A stretch of 31,071 nucleotides of DNA, filler included, from Amphiscolops sp. MND2022 (Eukaryota): assembly GCA_964187785.1 (NCBI GenBank). It is 2 parts of 2 records of this genome, joined end to end, with 100 filler letters (N's around TTAATTAATTAA, not from the genome) between each part and the next. Parts side by side here need not be neighbours in the genome. Positions count along the whole stretch, not along the records: positions 9,511 to 31,071 come from OZ076411.1; 1 more part is not named here. One strand, 5' to 3'. Below the pieces are notes generated by a model. It saw only the letters and a list, made by a program, of their open reading frames with translations, searched no databases and had not been told where the DNA came from. Shown piece after piece: positions 9,511 to 31,071 of the stretch (within the stretch, counting starts at the first letter, position 1; each line of letters opens with the position of its first letter). Both the position numbers and the translations under genes were made by a program.

Positions 9511-10231
9511 ACCATGACAAAAAGTAATTTATCAAAATTTTTAAATATTTAAGAAAAAATCACGACAAAAATAATCGTTTCAAAAATTTATTACTAACGT
9601 ATAACTCACTAACCTCTATAGCAGTAGGAAAAGTGTATTGTATGGAGCAGGCGATTGAAACTTCAAGTATGCAGTGGGAATTCAAGTGAAAACACAAATT
9701 TCAAAAAAAAATGTTGTATGGCTGGAGAGAAGTCCCAATAACTTAACTCCTAACAGAAAGAAAGGGGTTTGCTCAGTAAATGTCGCTTTATTATCGTGTA
9801 AGTATCTTCACAAAGTATCTCCCTATGCTCACATTTTTCGGCTCCACAGTACTAGTGAAAAATCAATTGCGGTTAAAAATATAATTTAAAAATTATCCAG
9901 ATAATCCGAGTTGTAGGCTTCCACTGGTAAGTACAGTTACAGTTGGACTGCAGATCGGAGAATCATATTGAACAGTTCAACAAACTGTGCCAAAATCAAT
10001 GATACGTAAAGGCTGCCAAGTACGGGAATTGTTTTTTATTTGGTCTGTTGCCGCTACGCATTTTCAGTAATTTCGATTTCGAGTATGTCTGTTACCCCCA
10101 CACAGTTCAACTTACTCACAACGTCGTAATGCTTCTTCTGTCCTTCTAAAGGTAGAATACCTCAAGTGCGGCGCTTCGTCTCAACATATGAATGTCTCTC
10201 AACGTGCCATTTTCACATTTTCAGGCATACA

Positions 10232-10971
10232 ATGAAGAGGTACTTTTTAGATTACTGTTTGTCACTTCAGCTTGGTCCGCTTCGAGTCTTTCAGGCAGAG
10301 GAGGTGGTTACGGAAAGGAAGTTTTTCCATGAGGAGCTCGGTCAATGTAACCGTGACGAGTCTATCCGATGTCTTCGGACCCGCTTCCCTATTGTGGATC
10401 TCGATGATCATTGTCGGGCTATCATCACTTCTTGTGTGGCGCGGCTGGATAACATCATTGGCTTTCGCGTGAATGGGTCAATGGTCCATTATCCCGAACA
10501 AAGAAGAGCCCTATGTAAGAAGGTGGGTATCACTTGGGTGCGTCATCTTCCCACCGCAGACCATCCTTTCAACAAGTTCCGTCCTGATACCCTGCATCCC
10601 CAGACCATTCAGAAATGCGTCTGCTCGACGTTAAGTGCTGTTCTGTCTGGGACGCCAGCCCATGCCAATATTTTGGTGTTGAACGTCGGAGCGTACTGGG
10701 CCAGCCAGCACCTGACGGACAGTTTGCTTGGATGTGGACCTCCCGGAAGAGCGGCATCGATGACCTCTTCGCGGTCACAGTGACTGACACCAAGTTGCTG
10801 GCTCGTCGGCTTGGTGTCAACATCTACGGATATTATATTGGGCGCGGCGATGATCCAACTCTCTTGATCACGTATTCATGCAACCATCGGGGTCCCAGTG
10901 ACAGGGGAATTAATTTGTCTGCACGATGCCAAGGTCTTACAGATTGTTCCATTGTACCGTTACGAGATTGA
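10232..10971 (+). pseudogene. Frameshifted copy of the unidentified 246-aa ORF
   Basis: One G fewer than copy 2 at GTCGG(G)AGCG (~10690), which splits the reading into ORFs ending at 10783 and 10971. Confidence 0.6.
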
Positions 10972-15500: not shown

Positions 15501-16446
15501 TTTTTCGCCATTAAGTACTGAAAAAACTAAACTGCCCATCACAAAGTCCAAAAAATTCTATTGTAAATCCAGTCAAGAATTACATACAAACAGAGCATTC
15601 CCAAAACCCTAAAGTTTTTTATTAGTTGAAAGTGGGATACGAAATCTTGTTCGGGCTCAGACCATGACAAAAAGTAATTTATCAAAATTTTTAAATATTT
15701 AAGAAAAAATCACGACAAAAATAATCGTTTCAAAAATTTATTACTAACGTATAATTCACTAACCTCTATAGCAGTAGGAAAAGTGTATTGTATGGAGCAG
15801 GCGATTGAAACTTCAAGTATGCAGTGGGAATTCAAGTGAAAACACAAATTTCAAACAAAAATGTTGTATGGCTGGAGAGAAGTCCCAATAACTTAACTCC
15901 TAACAGAAAGAAAGGGTTTTGCTCAGTAAATGTCGCTTTATTATCGTGTAAGTATCTTCACAAAGTATCTCCCTATGCTCACATTTTTCGGCTCCACAGT
16001 ACTAGTGAAAAATCAATTGCGGTTAAAAATATAATTTAAAAATTATCCAGATAATCCGAGTTGTAGGCTTCCACTGGTAAGTACAGTTACAGTTGGACAG
16101 CAGATCGGAGAATCATATTGAACAGTTCAACAAACTGTGCCAAAATCAATGATACGTAAAGGCTGCCAAGTACGGGAATTGTTTTTTATTTGGTCTGTTG
16201 CCGCTACGCATTTTCAGTAATTTCGATTTCGAGTATGTCTGTTGCCCCCACACGGTTCAACTTACTCACAACGTCGTAATGCTTCTTCTGTCGTTCTACA
16301 CGCGAACTTTATTACGTTGTAATATATCGCCAATCTATAATGAACGTCGAAGCTTCTTCCAAAAAGGTAGAATACCTCAAGTGCGGCGCTTCGTCTCAAC
16401 ATATGAATGTCTCTCAACGTGCCATTTTCACATTTTCAGGCATACA

Positions 16447-17187
16447 ATGAAGAGGTACTTTTTAGATTACTGTTTGCCACTTCAGCTTGGTCCGCTTCGA
16501 GTCTTTCAGGCAGAGGAGGTGGTTACGGAAAGGAAGTTTTTCCGTGAGGAGCTCGGTCAATGTAACCGTGACGAGTCTATCCGGTGTCTTCGGACCCGCT
16601 TCCCTATTGTGGATCTCGATGATCATTGTCGGGCTATCATCACTTCTTGTGTGGCGCGGCTGGATAACATCATTGGCTTTCGCGTGAAGGGGTCAATGGT
16701 CCATTATCCCGAACAAAGAAGAGCCCTAGGTAAGAAGGTGGGTATCTTTTGGGTGCGTCATCTTCCCACCGCAGACCATCCTTTCAACAAGTTCCGTCCT
16801 GATACCCTGCATCCCCAGACCATTCAGAAATGCGTCTGCTCGACGTTAAGTGCTGTTCTGTCTGGGACGCCAGCCCATGCCAATATTTTGGTGTTGAACG
16901 TCGGGAGCGTACTGGGCCAGCTAGCACCTGACGGACAGTTTGCTTGGATGTGGACCTCCCGGAAGAGCGGCATCGATGACCTCTTCGCGGTCACAGTGAC
17001 TGACACCAAGTTGCTGGCTCGTCGGCTTGGTGTCAACATCTACGGATATTATATTGGGCGCGGCGATGATCCAACTCTCTTGATCACGTATTCATGCAAC
17101 CATCGGGGTCCCAGTGACAGGGGAATTAATTTGTCTGTACGATGCCAAGGTCTTACAGATTGTTCCATTGTACCGTTACGAGATTGA
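16447..17187 (+). CDS. Hypothetical protein, 246 aa (MKRYFLDYCL...DCSIVPLRD), no family recognised
   Basis: Long open frame, visibly GC-richer than its flanks. ATG lies 7 nt after a TTTTCAG acceptor (ends 16439). An upstream GTAAGT donor at 16077 suggests a 5'-UTR intron; AATAAA at 17356-17361. Confidence 0.6.
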   Translation: MKRYFLDYCLPLQLGPLRVFQAEEVVTERKFFREELGQCNRDESIRCLRTRFPIVDLDDHCRAIITSCVARLDNIIGFRVKGSMVHYPEQRRALGKKVGIFWVRHLPTADHPFNKFRPDTLHPQTIQKCVCSTLSAVLSGTPAHANILVLNVGSVLGQLAPDGQFAWMWTSRKSGIDDLFAVTVTDTKLLARRLGVNIYGYYIGRGDDPTLLITYSCNHRGPSDRGINLSVRCQGLTDCSIVPLRD

Positions 17188-22790: not shown

Positions 22791-23725
22791 GTAACAAATC
22801 TTACTTTTTTTCTACGTTTTTGTATTTTCCAACGCAACTTTGGTAAAATCGTCAAACTTTTCATAGATCAAAACTCTGAAACGGCTCAACAACAACTGGA
22901 AGCGTTCTACTGTAGGCTTTTTGATGGGACATGTGCCAGTTTCTGATAAAAAATTAAGCTTTAATTTGACACAAAAATTGTCGAAAAGTCCTAAAAATTC
23001 CAGTTTATGTAGGTTCTTCATGTTATTCGAGTATCATTTTTGAGAATATTGGTAAGTTAGATGGTTCAAAATATTCCTCAAAATGACCCCAAAATAGTCG
23101 AAAAAAATTTTGGCAGTTGTTCGAAAAATTAGTGAATTTCTATTGAAAATTACCAAAATTTCGTAATATTCTAAAAGTCTAAATTTTTTGAGTAGGCATG
23201 CAGAATGTTCAAAAAAATCTACAGTTGTGTATGCAAAAAGTTCGTCAGGATGATTTGAACTTAAGCGAAAATCCGTTTTTTTTTGAAATATTGATATACT
23301 TTTATGTAAACGTTTCGAGCAATTTTGTAATTCAAGAATGAGTGGACCCGTTATCCAAAAAGCATTTTTGAAAAGACATCTACAGTTTCTTATAAAAGTT
23401 CCTCAAATGACCGCAATTTTGTCGGAAAGCAAAAATCTACACTTTTTGACATTTTTGGCAACTTCACGCAAATTTAAAGAAATTTTGATTTGTTAGGTTA
23501 CACACAATCTGACGAAAAAACAAATAGGTGTTTGGTGTCTTCTTAAAGTGTTTCCTTCTGAAATGGCATAACATTATTCGAAAAGTGTCAAACCGTTTTC
23601 CATCAAACCTCTGACTGTTTTCATTGTGTAGTGGCTACTCTTGAGTGTCAAAAAGATGTCATTGCTTGAACAGTTTGGATGGAAAATATCCTGCTGATCA
23701 GCGGGCGTCTTGACGACAATATTCC

Positions 23726-26256
23726 CTTGACAATATCCTATGTGACCTTATTGCTGTCCCTCTATCCTTCGAGATCATGGGTACAAATGATATTAGTGAT
23801 CACTATCCAATAATTCTGAACTTAGAGAATGCTGTTGAACCCAACTCTTCAAGTATTGTTTTCTCCTTCACGAGTCGTGAGGAGATGGAAGTTTTCAAAA
23901 AATCGTGGATTCACTTTACATACGAGCCCTATCCAAGTAGAGCAAATGTGGTTGGTTTCTACAATTGTCTTTGGTATAGTATTGAAACTTCATTCAGTAG
24001 CAAGAGGAAAAAACGCTTAGCCAACCCGTTTTACTACACTTCCAATAAAATGCATACGCTTAACAAGTTAAAAACAGCGAAAAGAAAAACTGTTAAAAAT
24101 CCTAGTAAAACGAACATTGAATCTGTCGAAAAACTCCAAGTGGGGTTTAGTAACTCAGCGGAAATGGACCGTATGTTATTTGTTGCTGGAGCTTCCACGA
24201 ATACTCTGCCTGACTGTTTCAGTCTCTTAAACAGCCTCAAAACAAATACATACCCTATGGTGATGAGCTATGATGACGACTGCTTGAAGACTGTACCTCA
24301 AATATCAAATGACTTTAATACTTACTTCTCCAGCAATTTCAATCATACAGAAATCCAGCTACAGTTTATGAATCAGATGGCTCACTCAAACTTGATGATA
24401 CTCTTCTATCCGTAAGTCCCTCAATTATTCGTGAGACGATACTCGCTATGAAAGAATCCCCGACTATTACAAATGATTTTCTCCCCCCTAAGTTATTGAA
24501 ACTCTGTCCTGATGTTTTTGCAATCTTCTTCATCCTATTTTTTGCTCGATAAGTCTTACGAAATCTTACCCTGAAGTTTGGAGAAGTGCTTTGATACGAC
24601 CAATTTTCAAGGTTGGGCTAAAGACTTCATTCTTAATTACCGACCCATTAGTCCCCTACCGACATCCCCGCTATTATTTAAAAAGCTGGTCTGGAGGCAC
24701 AATTTTAGCCACGTTTGGATGAAAATACTCCCTAAACAATTCGGCTTTCAGTCAAGAAAAAATTCTGTCTTAAGTTAACAGACTTCCTAGAATATGCACA
24801 TAGAATGAAGACCTTGGTTACCCATACTGTGTATCTAGATTATGAAAAAGCATTTGATAAGGTTCCTCACACAATTAACTTGAGTAAACTTCGTAAGTTT
24901 GGTCTGGATGAAAGTTCCCTTGAACTACTATCAAGCTATCTGAAAGATCGAATTCAGAATGTTAAAATTGATAACCATGTCTCCGACTCAGTCAACATTG
25001 CGAGTGGAGTTCCTCAAGGCTCCGTCGTGGGTCCTCTTTTCTTTATTTTATTCAAAATGATTTGCCTTCTATTTTCTTAGACTGCAAACCATGGCTATTT
25101 GCTGATGACTTGAAGCTTCTCTTCAACTCTCTCAATTTCCATAATGATCTGGCAAGGTTATCAAACTGGAATGTCTCAAATGGTATGATAGCTAATTCCA
25201 GCAAAACTAAATGTTTACCTTCTGCTGGCAAACCAGCTGTTCTTCTAAAAACTTCTGAGTCGTTGGAAAATGTAAAACTCCACAAAGATCTCGGTGCTTT
25301 CATAGCCAGCGATTTATATTGGCCTAGTCAGCTCAATAAAGCTCGAAAGGCTTTTTTCTCTCTTTTAATCGGATCCTTTTTAATACTCCCTCCAAAACAA
25401 AGCCGAATTTATACACTTCTATGGTTTATCCATGCTCCTCTATGGAATTCCTGCTTGGCATCCTGATGTAACGAGGATAAAAGAAATGGGAAAATTTCAA
25501 AAATCCTGCCTCCGTTGGGTCTTTGGTTCTAAATTACAATATGAACGGCAGTTAAAAAGCTACGACATCCTGCCCGTGTGTTATCAAAGGTATGTGCCCT
25601 TTTTCCGAATCCCATTTTGCCGAATTTCGATGCCCACTTTGCCGAATTCCGATGCCCACTTTGCCGAAAATTTTTTTGGCAAAATGGGCAAGGAAGGCAG
25701 TTGTCTACATCTGCAAAAACAGACTTTTAAAGCTATAAAATGATTCAAAGTAAAAAACGTGTCTCGGATATGTCCCCAGTTCCTCTAGTGCCCAGCGGCC
25801 CCTTGGAACCGCTTATGTTCCCATCTTGCTGAGCGAGGTCGAACAGGAGCAAAGACCTAGCGGGTACGGAGATCGCGAAGCGATCGTAGTGGGAGCTGGT
25901 CTTTGCGACGGTGAGGGCGAATGTGCATACAGCGGATATGCCCCACATTATATTTTCGCTCTCAAAAAGTCTGTTTTTGCAGATGTAGACAACTGCCTTG
26001 CCCATTTTGCCGAATTTCGATGCCCACTTTGCCGAATTCCGATGCCCACTTTGCCGAAAATTTTTTTGGCAAAATGGGCAAGGTAGGGACACTTTGCCGA
26101 ATTCGGCAAAATGGGTTTCGGCAAACTGTCCCATATTCTTATCAAATTGAACTTCTCACAATGACAATGGCATTCAAAATGTTTAGTGGGCGGTATCTGT
26201 ATGACTTTGCTACCCATATTGACTTTCGTGTTTATGGTCGAATCTTAACTCCTTAA
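23726..26256 (+). mobile_element. Old 5'-truncated, frameshifted LINE ORF2 (CR1/L2-like), interrupted by a MITE at 25589-26138
   Basis: Endonuclease tail LDNIL...SDHYP, then RT motifs YRPIS, QFGF, YLDYEKAFDKVPH, GVPQGSVVGP and FADD in shifting frames. The reading LPVCYQ|IELLTM resumes across the MITE. Confidence 0.92.
25589..26138. mobile_element. 550-bp palindromic MITE with 8-bp TSD
   Basis: TTATCAAA at 25581-25588 and 26139-26146. Imperfect TIRs sharing CCGAA(T/A)CCCATTTTGCCGAATT; 83-bp direct repeat at 25611-25693 / 26001-26083; inner inverted arms at 25694-25728 / 25965-25999. Confidence 0.9.
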
Positions 26257-26460: not shown

Positions 26461-26614
26461 AAACACGTGGCAGATTTTGTCGAGTTTATCTTCATAACGT
26501 AGTCAGCGTATTATTATAACATGTCATATCAAGTACCCCTCGGATATGTCCCCATTTCCTCTAGTGCCCTGCGGCCTCTTGGGGCCGCTTATATTCCCAT
26601 CTTGCTAAGCGAGG

Positions 26615-26725
26615 TCGAACAGGAGGGGTGGCTGTAAATAGGTCGAATTTTTCTGGTCGAAAGGACTGAAGTCGAACCTTTTGGTCGAATTGTAGGGATC
26701 GAATGGAGTGCGGTCGAATTCGATC
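26615..26725 (+). repeat. Cluster of (G)TCGAA subrepeats
   Basis: About seven copies of GTCGAA/ATCGAA at 12-25 nt spacing. Confidence 0.55.
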
Positions 26726-26865
26726 GTATTTGTTGTATGGCTCGGTCGCTTCGCTCCCTTCGCTCCCTTCGCCAAGTAGCAACCTTGAGGCATGGCCATA
26801 TGGCACGTCGCTCCGCTTCGCTTCGCTAATTGTTGTGATAAACTTATTAAATAGTTTCCGGTGAA

Positions 26866-27648
26866 ATGACAAACAAAACATCTACGTCGGCATCCAAGTG
26901 TGGATCCTGCAAGAAAATGGTGAAGGATGAGGACCCGTCTGGCATTGCTTGTGACTCTTGTGGTGTTTGGTATCATGGCTGCTCATGTGCTGGTCTCTCT
27001 CAAGATGATGTCACTGTGATGGGCAGAATCAGAGGGTGTCTCTGGATCTGTAGTGTTTGCCACAACGATGATGTTTTCACATCCGAAGCTAAGTTGAATT
27101 CTTTGATTGCTAAGAAAGAATATAAAATCTCGGTTAAATCAATTCAAAATTCTCTTGATGAAATTAAAACAAAACTTGAACCTACCCATAAAGTGCCAAA
27201 AGCTCCCCCTAGTGGAGAAACCACTTGTCGTGAGATTCTAATAAGTGGACTTGTTGAGGATAAGGGTGACTTTCATTCCTCTTTTGAAGCCGATGACTTT
27301 AATTTGAAGGAGGTCTTCCAACATATTGGTGAACCCATGTTATCCATTGAAACAACCCGTCAGCTTGGACGTCCTCAGCGTGATTCAAAAAGACCCAGGC
27401 CCCTGCTTGTACGTTTTACCTCTGAATGGGATGCTCGCAAAAGTTTATCGAAAGCTTACAAACTGAAATCATACCCTGTGCAACTCTACTTTTCTAAATC
27501 GCTAAATGAGGAAGACCAAGCGACGAGACGTAAACTGTTAGAAAAAAGATATCAAATGATTAACAATGAAAACGTCCCCAAAGAAGAATTGCGAATCAAA
27601 GGTCTAAAACTTATGAGAAATGGTGTTGAGGTCAACTTGCAAAATTGA
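26866..27648 (+). CDS. LINE ORF1p, 260 aa: PHD finger, coiled coil, RRM-like domain
   Basis: C4HC3-type pattern CGSC...CDSCGVWYHGCSC...WICSVC. EILISGLVE...RPRPLLVRF and LYFSKSL are typical of CR1/L2-group ORF1. Confidence 0.92.
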   Translation: MTNKTSTSASKCGSCKKMVKDEDPSGIACDSCGVWYHGCSCAGLSQDDVTVMGRIRGCLWICSVCHNDDVFTSEAKLNSLIAKKEYKISVKSIQNSLDEIKTKLEPTHKVPKAPPSGETTCREILISGLVEDKGDFHSSFEADDFNLKEVFQHIGEPMLSIETTRQLGRPQRDSKRPRPLLVRFTSEWDARKSLSKAYKLKSYPVQLYFSKSLNEEDQATRRKLLEKRYQMINNENVPKEELRIKGLKLMRNGVEVNLQN

Positions 27649-28733
27649 CTGCAAATCAAATCTTGCCTTATCAATGTCCAAAGCCTTATCGATGTTTCGC
27701 AACGCCTCAAACTTTTGAATTATCTCAGTCTTCATTCCCCAGATATCATCTTTCTAACTGAAACTTGGCTCTATCCATCTATCAACGATTCTGAAATTTT
27801 TCCACTAAAAAGCAATTATACAACAATCTCCAGACAAGATCGATTAACTGGGGAACATGGTGGGGTTTTGATAGCTACCAAAAAAGGATTTGAATTCAAT
27901 CATTCAGAAGTTTCAAAGCTGAACGACTACTCAACTGCCATCTACTTATTTGACGAATACAGCTCTCACATGTTTCTACTGATTTATAACCCGCCCACAG
28001 ATTCTCCATACCGTATTCAAGCAGATTCACTAATAGACTGCATTTCCTCATACTTCAACGACGATCTTGTATCTTCGAATTCTTTCACAATCCTTGGTGA
28101 CATTAACTTGGTGGACGTCTGTTGGGCAACAATCACTGCACACTCTGATTACTCTAAAGCAATATTGGAAAAAGTCGAAAGTTTAAATCTCCTGCCACTT
28201 GTTTTCGAACCAACTTACAAGTCCGGAAGCATACTCGATATCATTTTGACTTCAACTCCAGAACTTTTTACGGTTTGTGTGGATGAAAGTCTGTACTCGG
28301 ATCACTTTGCTGTTTTTGCATGGTTTTCCTTACCTAAGCCCTTGTCCAACCAAAGTTCTCAAACAACATCAAAGTATTCAGCTTCTTCCTTCTCCGCTCA
28401 CTGCTTCAATCAAAATCTTTCTTCTCACTACTATGATTTTCTGAGCTTCCCTAACTCCAGTTTTCTTCAATTCTCTTTTGACGATTATGTTGCCTTCTGG
28501 TATCAAGTGCTTATGAATGCTATCAATGCGTCCTGTCATCGCAAAACTAACAGGAGACTTGAGTTTCCATATTTCTATTCCTCTCACTCTATACATATGA
28601 ATAATAAGCTCCGCACAGCTGCCAAAAACAATTATGAACCAACATATCAAAAGAAGTTGAAGGACGACATACAAAATTCTATTGAACTGGACAAAACTAT
28701 CTTGATTGACAGTCTATCACCCAATTCGCATCC
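27649..28733 (+). pseudogene. LINE ORF2, APE endonuclease domain and start of linker; same frame as ORF1, no initiator AUG
   Basis: Motifs LINVQS, LTETW, GGV, IYNPP, LGDIN, LDIIL and SDHFAV. First ATG at 27970. Frame break and deletion near 28730. Confidence 0.92.
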
Positions 28734-29780
28734 TCTAATTGTTCGAGCTCTGATCCCATTCCCACGTTCGTTTTCAACTCCTGTCCTGGGCTACTAGCAC
28801 CTCTTGTCACCCAGCTTTTTAATACCATTATCAAATCAAAACAGTGGCCTGATTTCTGGAAATGTTCTACCATAAAGCCAATTCTCAAATCTGGTAACCC
28901 CGAAAATGTGGAAAATTCAGTCTATTTTGACTTTTCCAAAGCATTTGACCTGGTCTGTCATCACAAACTCCTACAGAAATTGGCTTCTTTCAATTTTGAC
29001 TCCGATTTCTTGGTGCTTTTCAAATCCTATCTAAATCAAAGATCTCAAAAGGTATACGTAAATGGGTGTCTTTCTGATTCTGCAAAAATTACAAGTGGTG
29101 TTCCTCAGGGGAGCGTGCTCGGCCCCCTTCTATTTCTTATCTTTATTAACGATCTACCCAAAACAGTACAAACATCCTCGAGTTACTTGTTTGCCGATGA
29201 CAGTAAACTTCACTCAGTCTTGACAACTTCTGATATGCAGCACGATATAAACTGTTTTCTTTACTGGTCGGGCGAAAACCTAATGATATTCAATATTGAC
29301 AAATGCAACGTTATCTCCTTCAAAAATAGAGAATTAATAGGCCCGTTCTTCCTGGATGGCAACGAACTACCAGTTGTAAATACTATCAAAGACTTGGGTA
29401 TCATGGTTTCTGACAACTTATCCTGGGACAAGCACATTCAATCTAAATTAATTGCAGCTAGGAAGTCTTTCCAGTTCTTGAAACGAAACCTGCCTCGAAA
29501 TGTTTGTACCCGTACAAAGCTACTTTACTATCGTCTTTGTGTACTGAGTGTCTTGCTATATGGTTCCCAAATAAGGTGCCCTTCATTGATTTACAGACGT
29601 AAATTGGAATTATTCAACATGAAGTGCCTGAAATGGGTTACTGGTTTATCAAACTATCTTGAACAACTTGCTGCAACATACACACTTCCAATTTCTTTCT
29701 ATCTTGTTTTCCAAGACATGCTTTTCCCTAATAGGACCATCCATGGCAAATATGACCTAAATATTGAAGACTTTTTTTAA
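28734..29780 (+). pseudogene. LINE ORF2 RT fragment 1 (internally deleted)
   Basis: DPIPTFVFNSCP...WKCSTIKPILKSGNPENVEN is joined directly to SVYFDFSKAFD, so YRPIS to QxGF is missing. GVPQGSVLGPLLF and FADD follow. Confidence 0.9.
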
Positions 29781-30722
29781 AAAAAAAATCGTTCAACAGT
29801 TACGCAATTACTCCCTTATCTTGACCAATTGTATCATCAACTTGATGTGAATGGACCCAGCTTCTCAGTCTATTTTGACTTTTCCAAAGCATTTGACCTG
29901 GTCTGTCATCACAAACTCCTACAGAAATTGGCTTCTTTCAATTTTGACTCCAATTTCTTGGTGCTTTTCAAATCCTATCTAAATCAAAGATCTCAAAAGG
30001 TATACGTAAATGGGTGTCTTTCTGATTCTGCAAAAATTACAAGTGGTGTTCCTCAGGGGAGCGTGCTCGGCCCCCTTCTATTTCTTATCTTTATTAACGA
30101 TCTACCCAAAACAGTACAAACATCCTCGAGTTACTTGTTTGCCGATGACAGTAAACTTCACTCAGTCTTGACAACTTCTGATATGCAGCACGATATAAAC
30201 GGTTTTCTTTACTGGTCGGGCGAAAACCTAATGAGATTCAATATTGACAAATGCAACGTTATCTCCTTCAAAAATAGAGAATTAATAGGCCCGTTCTTCC
30301 TGGATGGCAACGAACTACCAGTTGTAAATACTATCAAAGACTTGGGTATCATGGTTTCTGACAACTTATCCTGGGACAAGCACATTCAATCTAAATTAAT
30401 TGCAGCTAGGAAGTCTTTCCAGTTTTTGAAACGAAACCTGCCTCGAAATGTTTGTACCCGTACAAAGCTACTTTACTATCGTCTTTGTGTACTGAGTGTC
30501 TTGCTATATGGTTCCCAAATATGGTACCCTTCATTGATTTACAGACGTAAATTGGAATTATTCAACATAAAGTGCCTGAAATGGGTTACTGGTTTATCAA
30601 ACTATCTTGAACAACTTGCTGCAACATACACACTTCCACTTTCTTTCTATCTTGTTTTCCAAGACATGCTTTTCCTTAATAAGACCATCCATGGCAAATA
30701 TGACCTAAATATTAAAGACTTT
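28917..30722 (+). repeat. 858-bp direct duplication of the RT core (offset 948)
   Basis: TCAGTCTATTTTGAC at 28917 and 29865; homology ends at GACTTT (29774 / 30722). About a dozen substitutions by eye. Confidence 0.96.
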
Positions 30723-31001
30723 ATATGTTTTAGCCATCCTGCTAAAGATCTCAGAAGCTCCAAATTCATCCATCTTTCCCCAGTAAACCCCTGTCACAAA
30801 TTCAAAACCCAGGAATCTTACTTCCAGAGAATCTGCTGCTACTCTAACTACCTATCAGCAATCAATATTTCTGTCTTGGATAACTTCAACAGCTTCAGAA
30901 GGGACCTTTCTATTTACCTTCATAATCGAGTGTCTTCCTTCGATATAAATCGTTCTTGCACTTGGTTTATTAAGTGCTCTTGTAGCATCTGTCGTGCTTG
31001 A
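29787..31001 (+). pseudogene. LINE ORF2 RT fragment 2 with the native C-terminus
   Basis: NRSTVTQLLPYLD...SVYFDFSKAFD...GVPQGSVLGP...FADD...CTWFIKCSCSICRA*. 29865-30722 duplicates 28917-29774. Confidence 0.92.
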
Positions 31002-31071
31002 AATTTTTTTCACTTTTTACCCTGTAAAAGTCATTTATACCGCCTTTTAGAACATGCCTTTTAATACAAAG

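Follow-up and report, generated by a model that had tools for sequence, protein, structure and literature searches.

Our analyses favour, with a probability of roughly four in five, programmed readthrough of a UGA stop codon as the means by which a LINE of Amphiscolops sp. MND2022 would produce a minor ORF1-ORF2 fusion protein. The element lies at the end of the window, by which we mean the whole 31,071-nucleotide stretch of DNA that was analysed, and its two open reading frames share one frame and are parted by the UGA at 27646-27648. The original prediction had described this arrangement, with which the re-read sequence agrees, and had proposed readthrough into a fusion as its main inference. 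That proposal is supported by a stop and a frame that are invariant across the copies of the family, and by the presence of TGA-C in 21 diverged families.

How LINEs produce ORF2 is a long-open question, and the tested answers given in the portions of the reviews considered here, those for L1 and SART1, are both reinitiation. The group of elements described below offers a testable third answer, a six-base signal conserved among lineages with proteins only about a third identical. We found no published account of readthrough at UGA-C for animal LINEs of the CR1/L2 kind; the layout may be noted in sources beyond our search, among them Repbase reports, most subscription journals and the supplements on bioRxiv. 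If the proposal is true, these LINEs would have converged on the logic of Gag-Pol without a protease, their ORF2 protein (ORF2p) would carry a PHD reader, and their activity would be sensitive to the termination fidelity of the host. Intact elements of such a layout would also be routinely annotated as broken, or with a false start 100 codons in.

Layout of the element and its family

The LINE occupies the end of the second stretch of the window, from 26826 to the window end (Table 1). ORF1 starts at the ATG at 26866, and past the TGA the frame is still open from the CTG at 27649 (LQIKSCLINVQS), the codons CTG CAA ATC running into the endonuclease. Pfam recognizes a PHD finger, an endonuclease (PF03372/PF14529) and a reverse transcriptase (RT; PF00078) in the element. 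The invariant endonuclease residues are N9, E38, D151, N153, D197 and H219, and the human L1 endonuclease aligns with a profile of nine endonuclease starts from profile position 3. This alignment identifies Asn9 and Glu38 as the N-terminal catalytic motifs, so that translation must start at or before the first few codons. The claim that ORF2 lacks an early AUG held accordingly, the first in-frame ATG (codon 108) lying past both residues.

Table 1. Features of the LINE at the end of the window (positions along the whole window)
Feature	Position	Strand	Basis
5' end and very short 5' UTR (~40 nt)	26826..26865	+	5' start common to five intact copies; window aligns with L031 from 26826
ORF1, 260 aa: PHD finger (aa 12-65), short predicted coiled helix, RRM, C-terminal domain (CTD) of L1 ORF1p type	26866..27645	+	Pfam PHD; AlphaFold/Foldseek
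ORF1 stop TGA and CTG, candidate readthrough site	27646..27651	+	32/32 family copies; TGA-C in 20/20 families and a 21st
ORF2 apurinic-type endonuclease, in the frame of ORF1; Asn9 at 27673, Glu38 at 27760	27649..28344	+	Pfam PF03372/PF14529; L1 endonuclease structures as best matches
First in-frame ORF2 ATG (codon 108), too late for a whole endonuclease	27970..27972	+	Frame reading
Two internal deletions (about 237 and 194 nt) breaking ORF2, private to the window copy	28728..28917	+	blastn against intact copy L031
RT half, first copy	28917..29774	+	Pfam, blastn
RT half, second tandem copy, up to the ORF2 stop; C-terminal CxCxxC	29783..31001	+	Pfam, blastn
3' UTR; window stops just short of the conserved 3' motif and (AGT)n tail of intact copies	31002..31071	+	Intact copies

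A Pfam PHD finger is present in 12/12 aligned ORF1s, its best PDB match being the PHD of Pygopus, and the best Foldseek matches of the ORF1 AlphaFold model are human L1 ORF1p (2ykp/2yko; E 1e-5 to 6e-5). In the parts covered of Metcalfe and Casane 2014 (PMC4120745), type IIC ORF1s of CR1/L2-lineage LINEs combine PHD with transposase-22, and an L1 ORF1p-like fold together with a PHD finger corresponds to this type. We accordingly assign the window LINE provisionally to the CR1/L2 type, a label based on ORF1 type, tail and other known features, the rows of the RT tree being all unnamed. Three ORF1 relatives (P0011-P0013), for which this genome gave no close match, have a PHD half 72-75% identical to that of the window's family over the first 110 aa, and an RRM-CTD half that differs from it and has a longer tail, ending in KN. 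As judged from these proteins, they could be ORF1 recombinants with another junction type.

Copies of the window's family (family A) were collected with a 601-base BLAST query against the genome, for which 40 matches were listed among 102 candidates. TGA stood at all 37 distinct junctions read among the 40 matches listed, the junction of L017, a re-reading of that of L016, being counted once. When copies were retrieved with a pattern that left the codon open, TGA-CTG was found in 32/32, and the stop is thus neither chance nor a private mutation. The damage noticed downstream in the window copy was borne out as two deletions (about 237 nt at 28728 and 194 nt at 28917) and, starting at 29783, a second tandem copy of the RT half; yet ORF1, the TGA and an open ORF2 of 945 codons are intact in 5/12 copies fetched at full length. 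Between 28728 and 31071 the RT half restarts in tandem, with 858 bases in common at about 99%, either as a rearrangement or as an assembly artefact.

The five intact copies begin with about 45 nt of 5' UTR, end in (AGT)6-64 and lie in unrelated flanking sequence, and the best copies of the family are 98-99% identical; on this sequence evidence, family A is young and has spread with the stop in place. No clear long target-site duplication was found in the 25-nt flanks of these five copies. As the whole 5' UTR measures only about 45 nt in L031 and the other intact copies, any internal promoter must sit there or in ORF1. The 3' UTRs of intact elements span about 50-90 nt. A 13-base motif lies directly 5' of the tail repeat in 7/8 intact families (at the 3' ends of L031, L111, L116, L119, L122, L123 and L127) and as a variant in the eighth, the remaining 3' UTR not being conserved; it is likely to be the recognition site of the RT.

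The window holds further repeats. A LINE fragment of the same broad group, older, frameshifted and truncated at its 5' end, extends over 23714-25466; it is recognized by RT pieces, and no ORF1 or junction was found within it. A near-identical repeat pair at 10130-10783 and 16153-17187 bears + strand open frames of 217 and 344 codons. Upstream of the LINE, nested short repeats at 25596-25730 and 25973-26090, and at 25766-25850 and 26541-26625, comprise an inverted-repeat element (22-nt units) occurring twice and a second dispersed repeat, also occurring twice.

The junction in diverged families

Further loci were found via diverged ORF1 proteins and the Pfam endonuclease model and chosen from score tiers blind to the junction; 40, 40 and 20 were read, the first and third sets coming from ORF1 searches and the second from the endonuclease search. 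TGA-C stood at the end of ORF1 in 35/40 loci of the first ORF1-based set and in 14/20 of the second, and the remaining 11 were damaged, at the junction or close to it, by an indel, insertion, deletion or point change. The loci of the group sort into 20 families, and in 20/20 the TGA is followed by C with ORF2 in frame. The codon after the TGA is CTA in 10, CTG in 5, CAA in 2, and CAT, CTC and CTT in one each. A 21st, older family, reached via the sense-codon locus L131, has TGACTA in 14/20 copies. The distance from the stop to the endonuclease Asn varies from 7 to 17 codons, and the frame never slips in any of the 20 families.

These families have diverged deeply. From one family to another, identity over the final 110 residues of ORF1 ranges over 21-63% (median 34%), and at fourfold third positions in the four closest clusters the aligned pairs agree at 24/100, 60/157, 77/283 and 12/49, at or near chance. 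The stops of ORF2 in eight intact families are TAA in 4, TGA in 3 and TAG in 1. Since silent sites are saturated and the ORF2 stops are free to vary, TGA-C has been kept by selection. In a quick RT tree of 79 rows, from which family N and one control were left out for want of an RT piece, 19 families grouped with three metagenome rows in a single deep clade that was weakly supported (SH-aLRT 83). By this tree, the signal is ancient and has been retained rather than arising 20 times.

Leucine codons after the TGA are CTN in 17/17 cases and TTR in none, where CTN makes up a 0.68 share in these ORF2s (p 0.001), and CTA accounts for 10/17 of them versus a 15% ORF2 background (p 3e-5); both p-values treat the families as independent and, the families being related by descent, measure retention under saturation rather than independent origins. 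The three non-leucine codons likewise begin with C. This pattern of codons indicates that the constraint at the junction is on the bases and not on the residue.

Exceptions to the TGA are few. It is kept in 61/62 copies of family K and in 8/9 of family O, each exception being a damaged TGG copy. Five loci considered as fused copies were rejected as damage: L238 and L239 had lost the junction by deletion, L235 (TGG) is one of nine in its family, L141 (AGA) is a frameshifted copy, and L131 (GGA) belongs to a tandem triplet in the family with TGACTA in 14/20 copies. The lone changes from TGA to TGG, L235/L321 in family O and G000:C1:26879977 in family K, fit an ordinary transition or RNA editing before reinsertion, the numbers being too small to judge.

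One might suppose from these sense codons, and from the downstream damage of the window copy, that the element has a single ORF into which the stop came as an error, of this copy or of the assembly, or that the stop is a relic under no selection. The TGA is found, however, in 32/32 and 61/62 copies of families A and K, in five fully intact copies and in 21 families with saturated silent sites, and the copies with a sense codon are either isolated and damaged or members of one tandem triplet, which leaves such an error or relic scarcely credible. That sense-codon copies have not spread gives a weak hint that an excess of free ORF1p matters, as for MoMLV; such copies are already dead.

A different proposal concerns how ribosomes reach ORF2. 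Termination could be followed by reinitiation at a non-AUG codon (CUG in family A, other near-cognates or a nearby AUG elsewhere), giving a separate ORF2 protein, with the weak stop context holding the frame. CUG is the best near-cognate start codon, and restarting at the adjacent CUG, as raised in the original prediction, is possible for family A but fails for the group, CTG directly following the stop in only 5/20 families, family A among them. The other 15 carry CTA, CAA, CAT, CTC or CTT, none a start codon; with CTA, CAA and CAT unable to serve as starts, reinitiation at CUG cannot account for the group. Reinitiation further downstream would find an ATG or near-cognate within 10 codons in 20/20 families, the first of them 3-10 codons past the stop in 15/20, and true ATGs at codons 3-9 in six. 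It also has precedents, as the consulted parts of the literature describe reinitiation for L1 and SART1 and near-cognate restarts of up to about 45% for calicivirus elements (PMC10275272, PMC5972666).

Reinitiation, however, does not require that the stop be UGA, that C follow it or that ORF2 keep the frame of ORF1. A first strand rich in Leu, Ile and Val would contain near-cognate codons in any case, and the early ATGs occupy positions that hold other hydrophobic residues in sister families. Neither local folding nor a long-range scan revealed a SART1-like structure, and an ATG overlapping the stop, as in SART1-type stop-start, occurs in 7/20 families, out of the frame of ORF2 in each. An L1-type layout is likewise lacking, there being no spacer and, in 14/20 families, no in-frame ATG ahead of the endonuclease Asn. 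We consider reinitiation unlikely.

For readthrough, in turn, the bases around the stop are informative. In the covered parts of one source, UGACUA and UGACGG are type II readthrough contexts, CARYYA is type I and UAGGUA type III (PMC13517186), and in those of another, UGA-CUA alone gives 1.5% readthrough and needs no structure (PMC4132726). Exact UGACUA is found in 10/20 families and in the 21st, and a CARYYA context in families O (TGA CAA TCA) and S (TGA CAA CCA). As a counterpoint, family A itself has UGACUG rather than the canonical UGA-CUA. Also against readthrough, human L1 reportedly tolerates the loss of its ORF2 AUG and needs no fusion (Alisch's work of 2006). RNA structure adds little: across 80-nt windows with starts 0-160 nt past the stop, no family (0/20) reached a z below -2, and long-range pairing was no better than at control positions in a duplex scan covering pairings of up to 350 nt, pseudoknots aside. 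The 151-nt junction region of the window folds no better than shuffles (z +0.34). The small TTGCA/TGCAA stem that had been reported around the stop is present (27637-41 / 27650-54) but weak (-4.0 kcal/mol), and it is not kept in sister families.

That the junction codon is always UGA could also be read as a sign that it is decoded as selenocysteine, or that the host reads UGA as sense. An Rfam scan of eight intact elements at E up to 1 gave no SECIS, only three weak chance matches, the 3' UTRs are only about 50-90 nt long, and the UGA position aligns with no Cys. Moreover, eight open ORF2s contain 96 TGG and no TGA in 7558 codons, and three of them end in TGA; from both observations, UGA is a normal stop here. 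Either form of sense decoding has a negligible chance of being right.

In some transcripts the stop could also be lost at the RNA level, either through A-to-I editing, which would have UGA read as UGG, or through splicing; the outcome would again be a fused protein, or a fresh start site. Families O and K each have one exception, and in both it is TGG, as edited RNA would leave after reinsertion; both copies are nonetheless damaged singletons, and the further exceptions read AGA, GGA and AGC. Editing by ADAR is disfavoured by the G that lies 5' of the stop's A, and no duplex spans the stop. Splicing is excluded in 9/20 families, family A included, because no AG lies between the stop and the Asn codon and no acceptor can thus skip the stop yet keep the motif. 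We regard a change in the RNA as very improbable.

By the programmed readthrough that we prefer, ribosomes would scan to the ORF1 AUG and start there, and most would end at the UGA, releasing ORF1p (260 aa). A minor share, probably around one to a few percent, would insert an amino acid at the UGA, by precedent Trp, Cys or Arg, and continue. The predicted product, about 1206 aa long (260 + 1 + 945), is a fusion whose endonuclease would start a short linker after the C-terminal domain of ORF1, and the rarity of this fusion would set a high ratio of ORF1p to ORF2p, like that of retroviral Gag and Gag-Pol. The predicted signal is the short context alone (UGA, C, then UA, UG or AA), without 3' structure. 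As a LINE has no protease to cut the fusion, ORF2p would keep PHD-RRM-CTD at its N-terminus. Single-ORF CR1/L2 elements with an N-terminal PHD are reported in the covered parts of PMC4120745, so that an N-terminal addition can be tolerated; the activity of an uncut fusion here is putative.

Other lineages and metagenome LINEs

The endonuclease search served as a control. Four of its 40 loci had no profile match, four belonged to the TGA-C group and 32 to other lineages, and none of these 32 LINE loci had an in-frame TGA-C junction. Where their junctions can be read, the two frames overlap or are separated by a gap, and in most an ATG precedes the endonuclease. In one control (L204) an in-frame TGA is followed by T, and an ATG stands at codon 12, but its sister copies differ in frame. 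In L203-L205 (G000 C7, C4 and C11), a LINE of another lineage, the length of the A-run before the TGA varies, so that the frame between ORF1 and ORF2 differs between copies, and a TTTAAAC heptamer follows the TGA.

A metagenome scan, in which 80 loci were kept of 387 confirmed, gave 46 with an endonuclease match. Six of these LINEs have a long ORF1, a single in-frame stop and no ATG before the endonuclease, their junctions reading TGA-CAC, TGA-CTT (three times), TGA-CTC and TAG-GTA. The last, at L272:1406-1411, is the only non-UGA single-stop junction found, and it matches the type III context. These six occupy four distinct positions in the tree, all outside the clade of the genome, and one has an ORF1 that appears esterase-like by eye. 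A seventh metagenome LINE has two stops and an ATG. The pattern matched 14 times in viral contigs, with none confirmed.

In 21 other metagenome LINEs (L243-L318) the two frames overlap in the -1 frame, and 16/21 hold an in-phase slippery heptamer X XXY YYZ, often right at the overlap start (within 10 nt). Such heptamers occur at 18/1340 in-phase versus 5/2638 off-phase positions (p 1.5e-5), an excess that codon make-up could inflate. The overlaps are candidates for -1 frameshifting in CR1-like LINEs. A weak search for natural fused ORF1-ORF2 proteins gave none among the 7994 longer candidates scored, and none was evident among the best 150 representatives, where the longest ORF1-like match had 456 aa, bar one multi-PHD protein of 842 aa.

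The slippery overlaps suggest that making an ORF1-ORF2 fusion is common in this superfamily. A broader view, which we hold to be evenly balanced between true and false, is that among animal LINEs of CR1/L2 type many produce ORF2 fused to ORF1 by recoding and switch between UGA-C readthrough, in the 21 families here and in scattered lineages elsewhere, and -1 frameshifting, as in the metagenome overlaps; reinitiation in L1 would then be the exception, and the PHD-RRM module would ride on the integration enzyme as chromatin reader and cis-RNA binder.

Comparison with known systems

In protein architecture the element resembles CR1/L2 LINEs with a type IIC ORF1, which have the ORF1 order PHD, RRM, CTD and an APE-RT ORF2 (covered parts of PMC4120745). 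In the same parts of that paper (Metcalfe and Casane 2014), the term "stop codon" never occurs and translation of ORF2 is untreated.

Human L1 and SART1 likewise have a bicistronic LINE RNA with low-level ORF2 production after ORF1, and the ORF1p fold is common with L1. According to the sections consulted, human L1 translates ORF2 by an unusual reinitiation, across a 63-nt spacer to an AUG, and SART1 has an overlapping stop-start with a downstream structure (PMC5972666, PMC5009743). Unlike both, the window group has no spacer and usually no AUG.

MoMLV Gag-Pol offers the same economy of an abundant RNA-binding protein and a rare RT fusion, in one frame and across one leaky stop, although, in what the source covers, the stop there is UAG-G with a pseudoknot (PMC13517186), whereas UGA-C stands here without structure. 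The type II readthrough of alphaviruses and vertebrate genes has its bases in common with the group, UGA being followed by CUA in 11/21 families. Within the parts covered, alphaviruses ration a polymerase by this context, and the vertebrate UGA-CUA(G) genes AQP4, OPRL1, OPRK1 and MAPK10 show readthrough without 3' structure (PMC13517186, PMC4132726). In contrast to the type II context, the third base varies here (A, G, C, T), CARYYA also occurs, family A has CUG, and there is no 3' stem-loop.

In Paramecium UGA is the only stop codon, so that the identity of the stop is uninformative there. The covered part of Guerin et al. 2017 (PMC5405496) describes, for Group 3 non-LTR elements of Paramecium tetraurelia, 12 consensus elements with a single in-frame stop, for which read-through was suggested. 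These too are APE-RT LINEs with ORF1 and ORF2 in one frame, a single stop, a short 5' UTR and a short-repeat tail, and their sister groups use another recoding route (PMC5405496). They differ in forming a ciliate-specific clade with a zinc-finger ORF1, and in that part of the source the suggestion takes one sentence, with no context analysis and no experiment (PMC5405496). The elements described here, unlike those of Paramecium, are animal LINEs of CR1/L2 type, which under a three-stop code have a conserved UGA-C context.
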